This document shows, piece by piece, positions 1 to 5,613 of a stretch of 6,553 nt of DNA. Numbering within the stretch: position 1 is the first letter of the stretch; each line of letters begins with the position of its first letter. The notes beneath the pieces are model-generated. The model made no database searches and was not told the origin of the DNA. It saw only the letters and a program-made list of their open reading frames with translations. Origin of the DNA: a virus (lineage: Duplodnaviria; Heunggongvirae; Uroviricota; Caudoviricetes). The DNA lies in IMG/VR virus record IMGVR_UViG_2654587568_000008, positions 1-6,553 of that record. One strand, given 5' to 3'. The position numbers and the translations under genes were made by a program.

Positions 1-928
1 GGATTGGATTAGGTTTAATAACATACCTATAATGTTCAGTCATGAGATATCAAGAATAAATGCTACGCCTGGTAACGTTCTTCTACAGAGCACCTCTGCT
101 TTTCCGCGCGTTTTAGTAAAAGCATCTGAGTTGAGAAAGGTTTTAGTTATACGTTCTTTTGAGCCTGATGATCACTTAAAGTTCATATTAGAGAACGCAA
201 TTGAGATATTTAAAAAACAGATGCCAGATCTTGATTGCGAGATTATTGATGTTAGATCGAAAGCTGAGTTTATTGATGCTCTAAATCAATATCAAGGTCA
301 TATTCTTGTTATGGATTGTCATGGAAACCATGATGGCAATGGGAGTCATGGATGGTTAATAATAGGTGAGGATAAAGTGGACACTTGGAGTTTGAGAAAA
401 ATAGCAAGAATTCCTCCTATCGTAATTCTGAGTGCATGTTTAACATCTGCCCTAAGTGGTTCTCATGCCTCTGTTGCTAATGGCTTCGTTATAAGTGGTG
501 CATTAAGTGTCATCGGAACATTACTGCCTGTAAATGCGATAGACTCTGCTATTTTTGTAAGTCGGTTGATCTACCGGTTTTACGAGTTTCCTTCGACGCT
601 ATCTACAAATTTTACACATGTTAATGTAAGGCTTTTTCTTTCTGTTTTTCTTAGGATGTCCTATGCAAGCGATTTAATAAGAGGATTTTTATCTGAAGAT
701 TTGATACCGAATAATTCATGGAAGAAAGATGCAGTTGACATTAACATGTATATAAACATGCTTCACCATGATTGGTATGATTATGTAATTAACAAATTGA
801 CGATGTTAACGGGGCTCACGAAAAAAGATGTACTTGATTTTATCGATAGAAAATTATTCATAACCGAAACTATGTGCTATAGCCAAATTGGATTTCCAGA
901 TGCAATCACAATTAGTCTTAAAGATTGA
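1..928 (+). CDS. CHAT/caspase-like (His-Cys dyad) protease-domain protein, probably 5'-partial (reading frame open from window edge; first in-window ATG at 32; stop TGA 926-928)
   Basis: Frame beginning at nt 2 has no stop before ATG 32, so the ORF may continue upstream, and there is no Shine-Dalgarno before ATG 32. Translation contains ...HILVMDCHGNHDGNG... (His-Gly), about 40 residues later ...PPIVILSACLTSALSG... (Cys), then ...ANGFVISGALSVIGTLLPVNAIDSAIF..., the layout of the CHAT/caspase catalytic core. The gene is much more AT-rich than the rest of the window. Family call is by eye, not HMM. Confidence 0.6.
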   Translation, partial: DWIRFNNIPIMFSHEISRINATPGNVLLQSTSAFPRVLVKASELRKVLVIRSFEPDDHLKFILENAIEIFKKQMPDLDCEIIDVRSKAEFIDALNQYQGHILVMDCHGNHDGNGSHGWLIIGEDKVDTWSLRKIARIPPIVILSACLTSALSGSHASVANGFVISGALSVIGTLLPVNAIDSAIFVSRLIYRFYEFPSTLSTNFTHVNVRLFLSVFLRMSYASDLIRGFLSEDLIPNNSWKKDAVDINMYINMLHHDWYDYVINKLTMLTGLTKKDVLDFIDRKLFITETMCYSQIGFPDAITISLKD

Positions 929-1850: not shown

Positions 1851-2212
1851 TATGCTCCAGCCTCCGGTGCTTTTGGCATTACTGCCCAGTGAGTGATATT
1901 AATATTTTCAAGGTCCCCGATCTGAAATGTCCACTGCCATTCTCCGGTTTCTTTTTGTCCCCAGGTGTACCAGAGAGAACGCCAGCCAATCAGCCAGCCT
2001 TCTCCGTTAGCATCAAATAACAGAACACTTTCATTTGCTGGTGGCAGTTCAACTGATACTGGTATTACTTTGTTTTCCTGTGCTGCACATTTAGCTTCAA
2101 GCGCATCGAATTTACGCACCAGGTATTCAGCATCCGTTTCATTCACTTTCAGGTCTCGTGGTACACATCTCCCGTGAAGAAACCCTTCCATTTCGAAAAC
2201 ATTCATGCGCAT
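1850..2212 (-). CDS. yfdS: DUF551-domain prophage protein YfdS, 120 aa
   Basis: ATG at 2210-2212 with GGAG 8 nt upstream. Stop TAA at 1850-1852. C-terminus ...GWLIGW...WYTWGQ...NITHWAVMPKAPE is DUF551-like. It overlaps the yfdR stop by 10 nt. Length and position match K-12 YfdS from memory. Confidence 0.75.
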   Translation of the reverse strand: MRMNVFEMEGFLHGRCVPRDLKVNETDAEYLVRKFDALEAKCAAQENKVIPVSVELPPANESVLLFDANGEGWLIGWRSLWYTWGQKETGEWQWTFQIGDLENINITHWAVMPKAPEAGA

Positions 2213-2739
2213 TTGCGTAACTCCGATAACTCGTTAAAACGTTCCATAAACATCCCGTAGGCATGGCCCGGAGCCAGTGGAATAACTTTGAACATCTCTG
2301 TTGTCGGGATACCTTCCAGTACTGGCCAGAAAGAGCCATCATCAAGCCCGAGATCGCGGCGTTCAGTTGCCAGCATGATGAGATCGGCATATTTCACAGG
2401 CGTGCTCATAACCGGGGGTAACCCGTATTTCTCACGGATTACGGCGTCTATTTTTTCTTCCATCCGTTTATAGTCAGGAAGAAGGCGTTTCAGTGGAGCG
2501 GGGATGTCCTGACAATACGCTTCTGTTGCATCATGCATTAACGCTTCAAAAGCAAATTCCTGCGGCACCAGCTGGCTGCAAAGCACCGCATGCTGGGCGA
2601 CACTGTAGAAGTGTGAAAGATGTCCTGCAAAGCGACAGATATTTGAAAGGGAAACTGCGATATCGTTAATCACGATGTCGTCTTTATTTATCTTGTCATA
2701 ATAAAAATGCTTCCCGGAAAAAGTTTTAATAAATGACAT
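2203..2739 (-). CDS. yfdR: HD-domain phosphohydrolase (5'-deoxynucleotidase-type) YfdR, 178 aa; start at ATG 2737-2739 rather than the track's GTG at 2751
   Basis: HD motif H...HD...D is visible (FAGHLSHFYSVAQHAV...ALMHDATEAYCQD). ATG at 2737-2739 is preceded by GGAG with 6-nt spacer, while the track's first codon at 2749-2751 is GTG. The resulting 178-aa length and its position between yfdQ and yfdS match K-12 YfdR from memory. Confidence 0.8.
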   Translation of the reverse strand: MSFIKTFSGKHFYYDKINKDDIVINDIAVSLSNICRFAGHLSHFYSVAQHAVLCSQLVPQEFAFEALMHDATEAYCQDIPAPLKRLLPDYKRMEEKIDAVIREKYGLPPVMSTPVKYADLIMLATERRDLGLDDGSFWPVLEGIPTTEMFKVIPLAPGHAYGMFMERFNELSELRKCA

Positions 2740-2832
2740 TTCGTTCTCCACTTTATATGCGCTGCACCGCGCTGAATTCTGCTAAAAGGAAGCTCTCACC
2801 ATCCGGTGATTATTGAGTTAATTACGTTTCCA

Positions 2833-2867: not shown

Positions 2868-3692
2868 TCAGGCGGTGAAAGTACCAATAAAGGTTTCTAC
2901 TTTGCTGTCTTTGAATTTCTCAACAAGCAGATCACGAAATTCGTTAGCCATTTCTTCCTGCATCGCTTCCAGCTGAATAATGCGCAGAACCAGTACAGGA
3001 CGATCGCCAGTGATAATGCTGAGGCGTAATTTAAACGGACGTTCTTTCAGGCCTTCAAACGGAACGCATTTAAATTCAAATGCCACTGGCATAATGTCTT
3101 TGGTTTTCGCTTCGACAGACTCCATCAGGGAGCGTTTGCCGCTGAAGTCATTGTCTTCAAAATCAGCGGTCTGGTTTGCTTCAATTGTGATTTTACGGAC
3201 TGCCGCAGCCGCTTTGGTTGCCTGAATGGTGTCACCATTAGCATCAAAGCCCACAAGGTAGTCGGCCCAGTCTTCAATCCATTCTGCCAGTGACTTCTGG
3301 GAGTTACGCTCGCCATTAACAGACAACAGAGCAGAAAACGGTGCTGTCTTTTTCAGTTTGAGGGTGGCGGTGTTATCTGCGTGACCTGGTTCATCAATAG
3401 TACCCAGGTTAAGCACACTGACGGCTCGCATATTATCGGCATCGATAAAGCAGCGGGTGCCTTCATCTGCAAGATCTTTAGAATAACGGGTAAAGTCATC
3501 GATGCTGGCAGTGGAAAGCGCACCACGGAAACGGAAGCGATTTAAATTAAATTTTTCCAGATCATGAATGCGGAAATTCTCAGGCAATGCCACAGCATCG
3601 GCACCAATCTTACTGATAATTTCATTAACACCCTGAGCAGAAATAAGGGCATGGATTTGATTAATTGCGGTTGCGTCTAAGTTCTGAGACAT
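2868..3692 (-). CDS. yfdQ: Prophage protein YfdQ (DUF2303 family, function unknown), 274 aa
   Basis: ATG at 3690-3692 is preceded by GAGGA with 6-nt spacer. Stop at 2868-2870. No recognisable catalytic motif. The 274-aa length and position upstream of yfdR match K-12 YfdQ from memory. Confidence 0.8.
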
Positions 3693-3757
3693 AATAAGTC
3701 CTCACTATATAAAGATATTCAGTGATGAGATAAATAATCAGTTAATTAAGAACGATA

Positions 3758-4120
3758 TTAATGACCTGCTGCGCGGAGTTTTCCGTCAGGTTCACCGGCA
3801 AGAGTCAGTAATTGTCCCTGGTCTTCCTGCAGAATAGTCAGGCGACCACCGCGATTGACATACATCGGCGTTTCGGTGGTGTCTTCTTCGGAAATTTTCC
3901 CGCGGTTAGTCGGGCGAACATATGAGAGTTTGTGTTTTATTTTCACACGGTTCTCATCAAACGGTTCGATTTCCAGGTTGAGCGAGACCTTACCTTTGGT
4001 TTTCGTGTTCATCACACCGGAAGCGACTTCACTGAGAACTGCGCCGATTTTGGTTTCAAATACGCCGCCGTCCAGCTCCCCGATAAATGCCTGCACATCA
4101 GTACTGCGTTCGCTAGCCAT
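3758..4120 (-). CDS. yfdP: Prophage protein YfdP-like, 120 aa (true start ATG 4118-4120; the track's 197-aa ORF starting at 4351 is an over-extension)
   Basis: Internal ATG at 4118-4120 (MASERSTDVQ...) is preceded by GAGGAG with 7-nt spacer. The upstream 77 codons translate to a Cys/Arg/His/Pro-rich, non-protein-like sequence and overlap strong RNA hairpins. The 120-aa length matches K-12 YfdP from memory. Confidence 0.7.
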   Translation of the reverse strand: MASERSTDVQAFIGELDGGVFETKIGAVLSEVASGVMNTKTKGKVSLNLEIEPFDENRVKIKHKLSYVRPTNRGKISEEDTTETPMYVNRGGRLTILQEDQGQLLTLAGEPDGKLRAAGH

Positions 4121-4168
4121 TTTGCTGCTCCTCATCATATCGACCCTGCAAGGTCGGTTGGTTTCTCC

Positions 4169-4257
4169 ACAAAACAGAGAAGAACACCTGCGGTGGCAGC
4201 CGCCCGGATGGATTGGGTTATGAGCCCGTCGTCCGGTGATGCTCTTCTCTGTTTTGT
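4169..4257 (-). repeat. 15-bp perfect inverted repeat ACAAAACAGAGAAGA (4169-4183) / TCTTCTCTGTTTTGT (4243-4257) enclosing a 59-nt GC-rich, internally structured loop; long stem-loop in the yfdP 5' leader
   Basis: Arms are exact reverse complements. The loop contains further short hairpins (GCGG/CCGC 4190-4203, GGGTT/GAGCCC 4215-4227). It sits between the DicF-like terminator and the yfdP ribosome-binding site. Confidence 0.6.
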
Positions 4258-4325
4258 AAAAAGAGCGGTACCAGCCGGAAGCAAGTGTACAAACTGGTAC
4301 CGCCAAAGCAGTGGCTGTTGTGGTG
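4258..4325 (-). ncRNA. Candidate DicF-like prophage sRNA with its intrinsic terminator (stem GCGGTACCAG / CTGGTACCGC at 4265-4303, then TCTTTTT)
   Basis: Minus-strand sequence ...CUGCUUUGGCGGUACCAGUUUGUACACUUGCUUCCGGCUGGUACCGCUCUUUUU resembles the E. coli DicF core as I recall it (UUUGGCGGUAUCAGUUUUAC...GCCGCCCUUUUU). A 10-bp GC-rich stem followed by a U tract is directly visible. Location in the early-left leader of a lambdoid immunity region parallels dicF in Qin. Not confirmed by covariance search. Confidence 0.4.
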
Positions 4326-4714
4326 GGGTTGTCACTCAGGCGTATGGTCAACCTGACAATCCGGTGTCCTCAACGGGGAAAGAGTAACCCCGCCATACTT
4401 ACCGCCGCGCCATTTCGCGGATTACCACAACGCTGAGAGCACTTAGCCAGTTACGGCACCACACTTTGTCGCGGCTCCATAAATGCCCTCATCGTTGCAC
4501 CCTGGTCTCTTCCCAGGCGTCAAACCGAATCGCCACGCTGGTTAGGCGTCTTATCAGCATCATCATTGACTTGCACATTCCGGCTACCTGGTTTGTTTGC
4601 CCGAGCAAGGAGTGGATTGTCCCCTTTAACGTCCCCAGACCGCTAACGACGCATGTGCCATACGCCGTGTTACAACCAAATTTTGTTAGTACCTTGTTTG
4701 TAGGTCTGGAAAGA

Positions 4715-4767
4715 AAGATAAAATGAAGTTGCGCATTATGCAAGTGTTTTTATTGCGAGATATGCAA
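4715..4767 (-). promoter_or_regulatory. Candidate OL/PL: two 15-bp operator sites TTGCGCATTATGCAA (4729-4743) and TTGCGAGATATGCAA (4753-4767), centres 24 bp apart, overlapping a candidate leftward promoter
   Basis: Both sites share TTGC-N7-GCAA with the OR site at 5537-5551. Minus-strand -35-like TTGCAT (4738-4743) and -10-like TATCTT (4715-4720) with 17-bp spacing are weak. An alternative -10 CATAAT (4735-4740) has poor -35 spacing. Confidence 0.45.
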
Positions 4768-4777
4768 TTTGATGGGT

Positions 4778-4802
4778 AATGAAAAGCCACCTTCTGGTGG
4801 CT
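4778..4802 (-). terminator. Intrinsic terminator downstream of cI (stem AGCCACC/GGTGGCT, loop TTCT, followed by TTTCATT on the minus strand)
   Basis: 7-bp stem (4785-4791 / 4796-4802) with 4-nt loop and a U-rich tail, located 22 bp past the cI stop codon. Confidence 0.55.
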
Positions 4803-4823
4803 AATTGATGTTGAGGTAGGGGG

Positions 4824-5516
4824 TTAATTGTGTCGCTTAAGGGTTTGTGACTGACTGATTAAGACCTTTCCAAAGACCATAAACCGGTGTTCGTTTTCGC
4901 TGGTAATTCCCCATTCGCGGTAAATCTGATTATCAGAAATTACCAGCAGTTTATCAGGTATCATTTGCAGTCGTTTGACGTAAATTTTATCATCAAAACC
5001 AAATACATATATACCATCCCCATCAAACTGATTGATACTGATATCAACGAAGATGAGATCTCCTGGCTCAATGGTTGGACACATACTGTCCCCACGAACG
5101 TTGATAACTTTAATGTGATTTGCTGGTCGTCCACCAAACATCGATACAGCATTATCAGTTCTGTATTCAATGGCATGAATCACATCAATGACATCACCGC
5201 CCTGGATAAGGCCATTTCCCGCACTGGCACTGACATCCAGCATTTCAATACGGAATACATCCTTCACCTGCGCAACATCCTCACTAATACTGTTTTTACA
5301 TACAGTATTACTTTTGAGGTCTGAGGTAAAGAGATCAGCAATATCAACACCTAAGCTCCTGGCAATATTACTCAGGGCTTGTTCAGTGAATTGTTTCTGC
5401 TTACCTGTTTCGAGGCGCGAGATATTCGCCGCATCCACTCCTATTGCTTCAGCGAGATCGGCGATTTTCATGTTCTTCGCCTGGCGAAGTTGTCTGACTC
5501 GATTTCCTATGTTCAT
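4824..5516 (-). CDS. cI: CI-type prophage repressor: N-terminal XRE-family helix-turn-helix plus C-terminal LexA-like S24 peptidase domain, 230 aa
   Basis: N-terminus ...MKIADLAEAIGVDAANISRLETGK is a helix-turn-helix. C-terminus carries the GDSM serine motif (VRGDSMCPTIEPGD) and a downstream lysine (IYVKRL) as in LexA/lambda CI, with a candidate Ala-Gly cleavage site (SASAGNG). Divergent from the Cro-like gene. Confidence 0.9.
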   Translation of the reverse strand: MNIGNRVRQLRQAKNMKIADLAEAIGVDAANISRLETGKQKQFTEQALSNIARSLGVDIADLFTSDLKSNTVCKNSISEDVAQVKDVFRIEMLDVSASAGNGLIQGGDVIDVIHAIEYRTDNAVSMFGGRPANHIKVINVRGDSMCPTIEPGDLIFVDISINQFDGDGIYVFGFDDKIYVKRLQMIPDKLLVISDNQIYREWGITSENEHRFMVFGKVLISQSQTLKRHN

Positions 5517-5613
5517 GCGTTTATTACATTTCTTTATTGCGCGTTAAGCAAATCAACTTGCGCAAAATATTTGCGTGAAATAATATGCTCATCACGCAAT
5601 ATGTGGAGGTTAT
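5517..5613. promoter_or_regulatory. OR/PR/PRM divergent control region with repeated TTGCG half-sites
   Basis: TTGCG occurs at 5537, 5558 and 5571, CGCAA at 5561 and 5595. 15-bp site TTGCGCGTTAAGCAA (5537-5551). Palindromes TTGCGCAA (5558-5565), CGCAAA-ATA-TTTGCG (5561-5575) and TTGCGTGA...TCACGCAA (5571-5578 / 5592-5599). Candidate PR: -35 TTGCGC (5558-5563), 17-bp spacer, -10 TAATAT (5581-5586). Candidate PRM (minus strand): -35 TTGCTT (5546-5551), 17-bp spacer, -10 TGTAAT (5523-5528). GGAGG at 5605-5609 precedes the cro ATG. Confidence 0.6.

Follow-up and report, generated by a model that had tools for sequence, protein, structure and literature searches.

The window, which is the whole stretch of 6,553 nt analysed here, is a lambdoid immunity region. 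It contains a cI-like repressor gene (4824-5516, minus strand), cro-like and ymfL genes that run rightward from the immunity region and, leftward of the repressor, a 700-nt non-coding leader followed by yfdP, yfdQ and yfdR (Table 1). The pattern TTGCN7GCAA occurs 3 times, against 0.78 expected, at the positions expected for the OL and OR operators of a cI-like repressor. The OL pair lies ~430-470 nt upstream of the terminator hairpin described below and marks the leftward promoter region. Since sites of the OL/OR type stand beside the repressor gene, the leader is under repressor control. This bears out the initial annotation, which had placed a small RNA candidate (4258-4325, minus strand) in the leader of a repressor-controlled leftward operon.

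Table 1. Features of the leader and its surroundings, in window coordinates.
Feature	Position	Strand	Context or basis
yfdR	2203-2751		downstream of yfdQ; RefSeq annotation of 99.7% identical locus
yfdQ	2868-3692		downstream of yfdP; RefSeq annotation of 99.7% identical locus
yfdP	3758-4120	-	first gene 3' of terminator; RefSeq annotation of 99.7% identical locus; phrog_204
Long hairpin H, ~23-bp stem	4169-4257	-	between terminator and yfdP; fold, conservation
Predicted whole leader RNA, ~174-175 nt	4258-4432	-	ends inferred from identity with sRNA-17; fold
Terminator module T, allelic type B (UUU, hairpin 4304-4264, U-run 4262-4258)	4258-4307	-	sequence, fold, covariation
3' strand of P0, CCACAAC (4323-4317), and single-stranded linker AGCCACUGC	4308-4325	-	alignment with K-12
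Structured domain U, ~115 nt, four helices	4317-4431	-	15-sequence alignment, covariation
P0, closing helix of U	4431-4425 with 4323-4317	-	
P1, hairpin of U	4420-4405	-	
P2, hairpin of U	4392-4374	-	
P3, helix of U	4362-4354 with 4334-4326	-	
Possible pseudoknot in U	4398-4393 with 4347-4342	-	
Operator-like sites OL, TTGCN7GCAA, two copies	4729-4743 and 4753-4767		immediately beyond the terminator of the repressor gene
Terminator-like hairpin closing the cI-like repressor gene	4785-4802	-	terminator scan
Operator-like site OR, TTGCN7GCAA, third copy	5537-5551		between cI-like and cro-like genes

Downstream of the candidate neither dicB nor kil is present, and the long hairpin H and yfdP are found there instead. 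H folds with an MFE of -49.1 kcal/mol (z -7.5), which none of 200 shuffles equals. It has been retained in six genera or phages, where 4 pairs show compensation and the apex varies, and copies occur in Citrobacter, Salmonella phage F1055, Erwinia, Trabulsiella and Izhakiella. By analogy with the dicF locus, H is likely an RNase III substrate on read-through transcripts.

Two other observations concern the edges of the window. At the left, a 298-aa ORF (32-928, plus strand) lies beyond a xis-like gene. At the right, in the Rha/antirepressor region of the same prophage, matches to the Rfam families isrK (67.9 bits) and C4 antisense RNA (83.6 bits) adjoin each other about 220-410 nt past the window's end (9076-9264 of locus L002; also 6096-6284 of L003). 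Judging from the C4 match, this prophage type also carries a P1-like C4 immunity RNA.

The terminator hairpin and the domain upstream of it

The sequence quoted in the initial annotation is present where it was placed, with the minus strand from 4307 to 4258 reading UUUGGCGGUACCAGUUUGUACACUUGCUUCCGGCUGGUACCGCUCUUUUU. Its core stem pairs G4303-G4294 with C4274-C4265 in 10 perfect pairs, 7 of them G-C, and can be extended to 13 pairs by G4304.U4264 and two inner pairs. The 81-nt stretch that holds it has an MFE of -22.5 kcal/mol (z = -2.5), a value equalled by 4 of 200 shuffles. The hairpin is nevertheless beyond chance, because compensatory changes maintain its stem in homologous copies from other types of phage and other genera: the five outer pairs (GGCGG/CCGCC) hardly vary, and at positions 6-10 of the stem 2-5 kinds of standard pair are found. 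The terminator hairpin is real, and it is the conserved feature of the module, rather than any seed sequence.

A generic terminator scan had missed this hairpin, only because its loop of 15-19 nt exceeds the 3-8 nt limit of the scan. As in intrinsic terminators, a G+C-rich stem directly precedes the U-tract on the transcribed strand. The short loop (typically 3-8 nt) and the long uninterrupted U-tract are lacking, the tail being UCUUUUU to position 4258, i.e. 5 U after a C. On the opposite strand the hairpin has no T-run, so the terminator is unidirectional. The long loop and short U-tract suggest partial, not complete, termination, with uncertain efficiency. Of the strong intrinsic terminator initially described, the strength of the stem can be retained, and the loop and the U-tract speak against the rest.

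The remaining part of the candidate (4308-4325) stands in place of the 5' seed region of DicF. At its junction with the hairpin module, the motif GC/UUU (4309-4305) resembles the RNase E consensus RN/WUU and could be a putative cleavage site.

The closing strand in this part belongs to a structured domain, here called U. In 15 aligned sequences, 93.1% of the cells are paired and 10 pairs are changed on both sides; none of 500 shuffles reached this pairing and covariation, and slid controls gave 0-4. The loop and junction sequences GGCGCGGCGGUAAG and CAGGUUGACCAU stay the same from E. coli to Izhakiella and phage P1. U is also found in phages P1 and P7, where it lies downstream of the promoter Pban (~30 nt from it in P1). 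No Rfam family matches U, and the domain is a reasonable candidate for a new one.

Could the hairpin be the target of RNA antitermination or attenuation, with U acting in cis on RNA polymerase like the put RNA of HK022 and deciding read-through? U always lies 3' of a repressor-controlled early promoter, each copy of this upstream block has a hairpin and a T-run 14-60 nt further on, no N-like protein gene is recognisable between the promoter region and the terminator, and the downstream early genes need expression after induction. However, searching the HK022 genome with a covariance model of U gave no match at E<=10, and we rejected U as a put homolog; put itself is a ~70-nt RNA with two stems (PMC9378689), a different architecture. 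Moreover, mEp460 and RS218 have another cassette at the place of U, and Stx phages have the terminator module without U and encode N. We regard this explanation as rather improbable.

Two ORFs overlap the RNA region, an antisense one (3932-4387, plus strand) matching phrog_3651 (E 4e-96) and a sense one (4135-4335, minus strand) matching phrog_33599 (E 5e-17), and hypothetical proteins are annotated here in some phage records, as would be seen if the region were protein-coding and the hairpin incidental. Against this, neither ORF has Pfam matches, and RefSeq annotates nothing here, be it in the 99.7% identical locus or in the sampled genomes. The homologs in Citrobacter, Erwinia, Trabulsiella and Izhakiella preserve the RNA helices, with the ORFs broken or replaced, and in mEp460 the antisense ORF is shortened to 47 aa. 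The antisense ORF would also overlap yfdP on the opposite strand. We therefore rejected a coding function, which is hardly credible given the missing Pfam matches and the loss of the ORFs where the helices persist. Both phrogs were probably built from miscalled ORFs.

Relation to DicF

The candidate had been read as DicF-like, and the resemblance is real but partial. Over the ~115 nt upstream of it, identity with the sequence that precedes dicF in K-12 is ~90%, and the alignment of both loci reveals a common core, UUUGGCGGUA(U/C)CAGUUU (16 of 17 positions match), and a shared U-run. In a global alignment against K-12 DicF, 42 of 68 columns are identical, with the DicF 5' end missing: its ~19 nt are deleted in the window, and the loop and the 3' arm are replaced. 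The 5' single-stranded region of DicF, UUUCUGGUGACG, is absent from the window, and CCACAACAGCCACUGC is found in its place in the K-12 alignment. This single-stranded part reportedly serves as the pairing region for xylR and pykA. The alignment thus reveals a positional and partial homolog of dicF, differing from it at the 5' end, in the loop and in the 3' arm.

Membership in the DicF family, proposed in the initial annotation, was contradicted by covariance-model searches. The Rfam DicF model (RF00039) has no match at the gathering score in the whole window, and a search of 4150-4450 (301 nt) returned no DicF match at E<=10. When only an 86-nt stretch was searched, DicF came out on top of 4227 Rfam families, still below the threshold, with 11.8 bits (E 1.8) against a gathering score of 48, and only model positions 12-52 were aligned, to 4307-4263. 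As positive controls, K-12 dicF and the copy of phage Tritos scored 76.7 and 72.5 bits.

The predicted effect on host cell division did not hold either. According to PMC5069750, the ftsZ ribosome-binding site pairs with the 3' region of DicF. For duplex prediction we used the ftsZ segment -32..+6, which reproduces the published DicF pairing, and 1000 shuffles; a 140-nt ftsZ target and a sliding 18-nt window scan were rejected, as genuine DicF was not separable from shuffles with them. The duplex of the window RNA with this target has -16.4 kcal/mol (z +0.5), a value equalled by 68% of the shuffles, whereas K-12 DicF reaches -27.9 kcal/mol, equalled by 3.3%. In addition, the hairpin of the window is more stable than that of DicF (-22.5 against -15.9 kcal/mol), so that its loop and arm are less available. 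Since the seed and the ftsZ-pairing parts of DicF are missing, ftsZ repression by the window RNA is not to be expected.

A functional DicF, i.e. a 50-70 nt trans-acting sRNA repressing ftsZ and metabolic targets once the leftward operon is derepressed, is therefore very improbable. Its positional homology to dicF, the shared 17-nt core and the first rank among the Rfam families would fit, and cleavage at the putative RNase E site could yield a 5' end at U4307; set against these are the low covariance score beside those of the controls, the larger searches with no match, the deleted 5' end and replaced 3' region, the weak ftsZ duplex, the more stable hairpin and the gene that follows, which is not dicB. 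What the locus has in common with DicF is a 3' terminator hairpin in a repressor-controlled prophage early operon, with the conserved upstream block before it. By descent and position the candidate is a dicF relative lacking the family-defining features. It can be described as a putative allele of the dicF locus, with the same position, the same upstream domain and the same GGCGG...CCGCC base, a different interior and no 5' seed. For prophages with this element, an ftsZ-mediated division block should not be assumed, and an attractive functional inference is corrected.

sRNA-17 and the leader RNA

A discrete RNA has been mapped in a sibling prophage. sRNA-17, of 193 nt, was defined by 5' and 3' RACE and Northern blot in a mEp460-like prophage of the E. 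coli K1 strain RS218 and was said to have 'no homolog in Rfam' (PMC7719688, Front Microbiol 2020). To place it, we located the primers of the published table in phage mEp460, which gives both its position and its strand. There the full-length pair spans 194 nt. The 3' RACE primers have the sense of the leftward strand, and those for 5' RACE, like the Northern probe, are antisense to it. The forward primer of the 'full length' pair, AAAAGAGCGGTACCAGCCGGAAGCAAGTGTAC, corresponds to the window's terminator in reverse complement, and the 3' RACE end falls in the U-run of a hairpin which, in RS218, is identical to that of the window. The small RNA postulated in the initial annotation has, in this sibling prophage, a mapped counterpart ending at an identical hairpin, with a length of 193 nt instead of 50-70 nt.

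sRNA-17 and the window agree exactly in the first 9 nt and in the last 67 nt, the latter corresponding to 4325-4259 and comprising the 3' strand of the closing helix, the linker and the complete terminator. Between GUUGUGG and CCACAAC, 61 of 118 aligned columns are identical. Apart from this one cassette, the window and mEp460 share 99.2% identity over 3700-4850, with both flanks identical. In the predicted folds, sRNA-17 and the window RNA each have a multi-helix domain closed by GUUGUGG/CCACAAC and then the terminator. Some rows of the supplementary alignment of 'degenerative sRNA-17s' hold this 3' segment alone (PMC7719688), and the window allele corresponds to such a 'degenerative' form.

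In K-12, the DicF precursor has 190 nt, with a 5' end made by RNase III (bioRxiv 10.1101/2023.04.14.536235), and we found that it starts just 5' of the same closing helix GUUGUGG/CCACAAC that is present in the window. The three RNAs (sRNA-17, the DicF precursor and the window RNA) are thus counterparts, and the window combines a DicF-type 5' domain with an sRNA-17-type terminator. No connection of sRNA-17 with DicF was found in the papers that could be searched, and the sequence string of the element had no match in searchable paper texts. The correspondence gives sRNA-17 of meningitis E. coli the position and architecture of the DicF precursor, and joins two literatures unconnected in searchable papers.

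Deletion of sRNA-17 raised yfdP by log2 6.6, and yfdR also went up, with low yfdP read counts (0.5 vs 47) (PMC7719688). The increase suggests compatibility with a barrier acting in cis. According to the published primers, however, the deletion arms spare the terminator hairpin as well as ~27 nt at the start of the RNA, and a resistance cassette was inserted (PMC7719688). With the hairpin left in place and a cassette inserted, the yfdP rise is no clean measure of termination at the hairpin. The ~95-fold increase may stem from an effect in cis or of the cassette, and not from regulation in trans.

The candidate might instead be the terminator end of a trans-acting sRNA with a regulon of its own, as was proposed for sRNA-17, with the regulatory part in the upstream cassette or in the terminator loop. 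The Northern and RACE evidence, the ArcA-dependent expression, the ~48 differentially expressed genes and the infection and blood-survival phenotypes on deletion, all for the RS218 allele, speak for it (PMC7719688), and the invariant loops and junctions of U are what a binding surface would look like. But no direct target of sRNA-17 has been validated, its largest effect is on yfdP, the adjacent downstream gene, and the terminator loop varies among E. coli copies and has an unrelated sequence in Citrobacter. As the cassettes of the window and of sRNA-17 differ, any cassette-borne regulon would differ too. We consider a trans-acting role unlikely.

Our preferred reading is that 4258-4325 (minus strand) is probably the 3' module of a modular leader RNA of the leftward early operon in a mEp460/SfV/CPS-53-like lambdoid prophage, and that it works as a leaky intrinsic terminator. 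We favour it because the hairpin covaries, always accompanies U and is identical to the end of a mapped RNA. Transcription from the leftward promoter, under control of the repressor through the operators at 4729-4767, would produce the ~115-nt multi-helix domain with its GUUGUGG/CCACAAC closing helix, followed by a short linker and then the hairpin and the U-run. The hairpin would terminate part of the transcripts, providing the 3' end of a ~174-nt RNA and limiting transcription into yfdP-yfdQ-yfdR, and the read-through transcripts would carry the ~23-bp hairpin H, a probable RNase III site. We infer that the window allele terminates and accumulates like sRNA-17, and its products would be processed by RNases III and E.

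Allelic types and known counterparts

The family was collected by anchoring on the conserved upstream block, which gave 118 viral loci that could be used. In these, at least six allelic types of the terminator module follow the block. Type A is DicF, type B is the type of the window (~35 of 118 loci), and types C-F differ from them in the interior; the Rfam DicF threshold is passed by type A alone. The type-B loop is the part that is polymorphic within E. coli, and the Citrobacter copy keeps the window's stem, GGCGGUACCAG/CUGGUACCGCC, around its unrelated loop. The candidate is an ordinary member of a known modular family.

When species-representative genomes were scanned, true homologs came up in E. 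albertii, E. ruysiae, Shigella, Citrobacter, Trabulsiella, Erwinia and Izhakiella. In this genome-wide pattern scan, most matches had arisen by chance in high-GC genomes, and those in Enterobacterales alone were kept. Searches of phages and plasmids added P1, P7 and Salmonella phage F1055. The 68-nt element is present, unannotated, in 1,591 of 5,426 complete E. coli genomes (~29%), and a correct label for such a common element has practical annotation value. In the CPS-53 prophage of K-12 the element is not retained upstream of yfdP, so the K-12 transcriptome catalogues are uninformative about it.

Some additional copies of the DicF type were observed. In Stx phages encoding N, a DicF-type terminator module with no upstream domain lies upstream of kil, flanked by the long-range complementary arms that K-12 also has, CCGTGCGC and GCGCACGCGG. 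The gene after this module is annotated as 'Kil protein' in Shigella phage 75/02 Stx (locus L128, module at about 2540-2600), and kil is annotated as 'cell division protein FtsZ' in phiSTEC1589-Stx1c (locus L130, about 2500-2560). The 254-kb Aeromonas phage AP1 (MT713136.1, 249906-249991) contains 86 nt that are 98.8% identical to the K-12 dicF segment. It is odd for this host and may be the result of contamination or of a chimeric assembly.

A wider view, which we put forward only tentatively, is that DicF, sRNA-17 and the P1 'dicF-like region' are alleles of one modular early-leader platform of temperate enterobacterial phages, in which the U cassette has a function of its own. Such a platform would consist of a swappable cassette closed by a short helix, followed by a GGCGG-based leaky terminator whose interior evolves freely and by an RNase III hairpin. 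The ftsZ-pairing loop of DicF would then be one outcome of this free evolution, and U could be either a cis regulator of read-through or a scaffold for processing or stability. If so, the interiors of these terminators would be a nursery for new host-targeting sRNAs. The conserved structured domain U, and DicF, sRNA-17 and the P1 region as one family, are the more interesting leads from this locus.

Compared with DicF of prophage Qin, the window shares the position in a repressor-controlled early operon, the upstream domain, the core, the terminator base and the U-run, and its U domain plus terminator corresponds to the 190-nt DicF precursor. Unlike DicF, it lacks the 5' ~19 nt, the ftsZ complementarity and an Rfam match, and has hairpin H and yfdP instead of dicB. 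sRNA-17 comes from the same prophage type and, like the candidate, from the leftward intergenic leader between the cI-like repressor and yfdP. The two differ in the internal part, a ~118-nt cassette in sRNA-17, which is the part probed by Northern blot, against a ~103-nt U-domain part in the window, and expression, ArcA control and phenotypes are known from the RS218 allele only. The put RNA of HK022 is also a structured cis RNA in a lambdoid early-operon leader, upstream of terminators, but it is a two-stem RNA with neither sequence nor structure similarity to U, which is a closed four-helix domain of ~115 nt. The P1 'dicF-like region' (NC_005856.1, 68791-68892) has a U domain (103 bits with the covariance model) followed by an intrinsic terminator; it belongs to the leader of an operon under repressor control and follows Pban, a promoter controlled by C1. 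Its terminator, GCCCAUC...GGUGGGC, is unrelated in sequence to that of the window, and tRNA genes and ban follow it.
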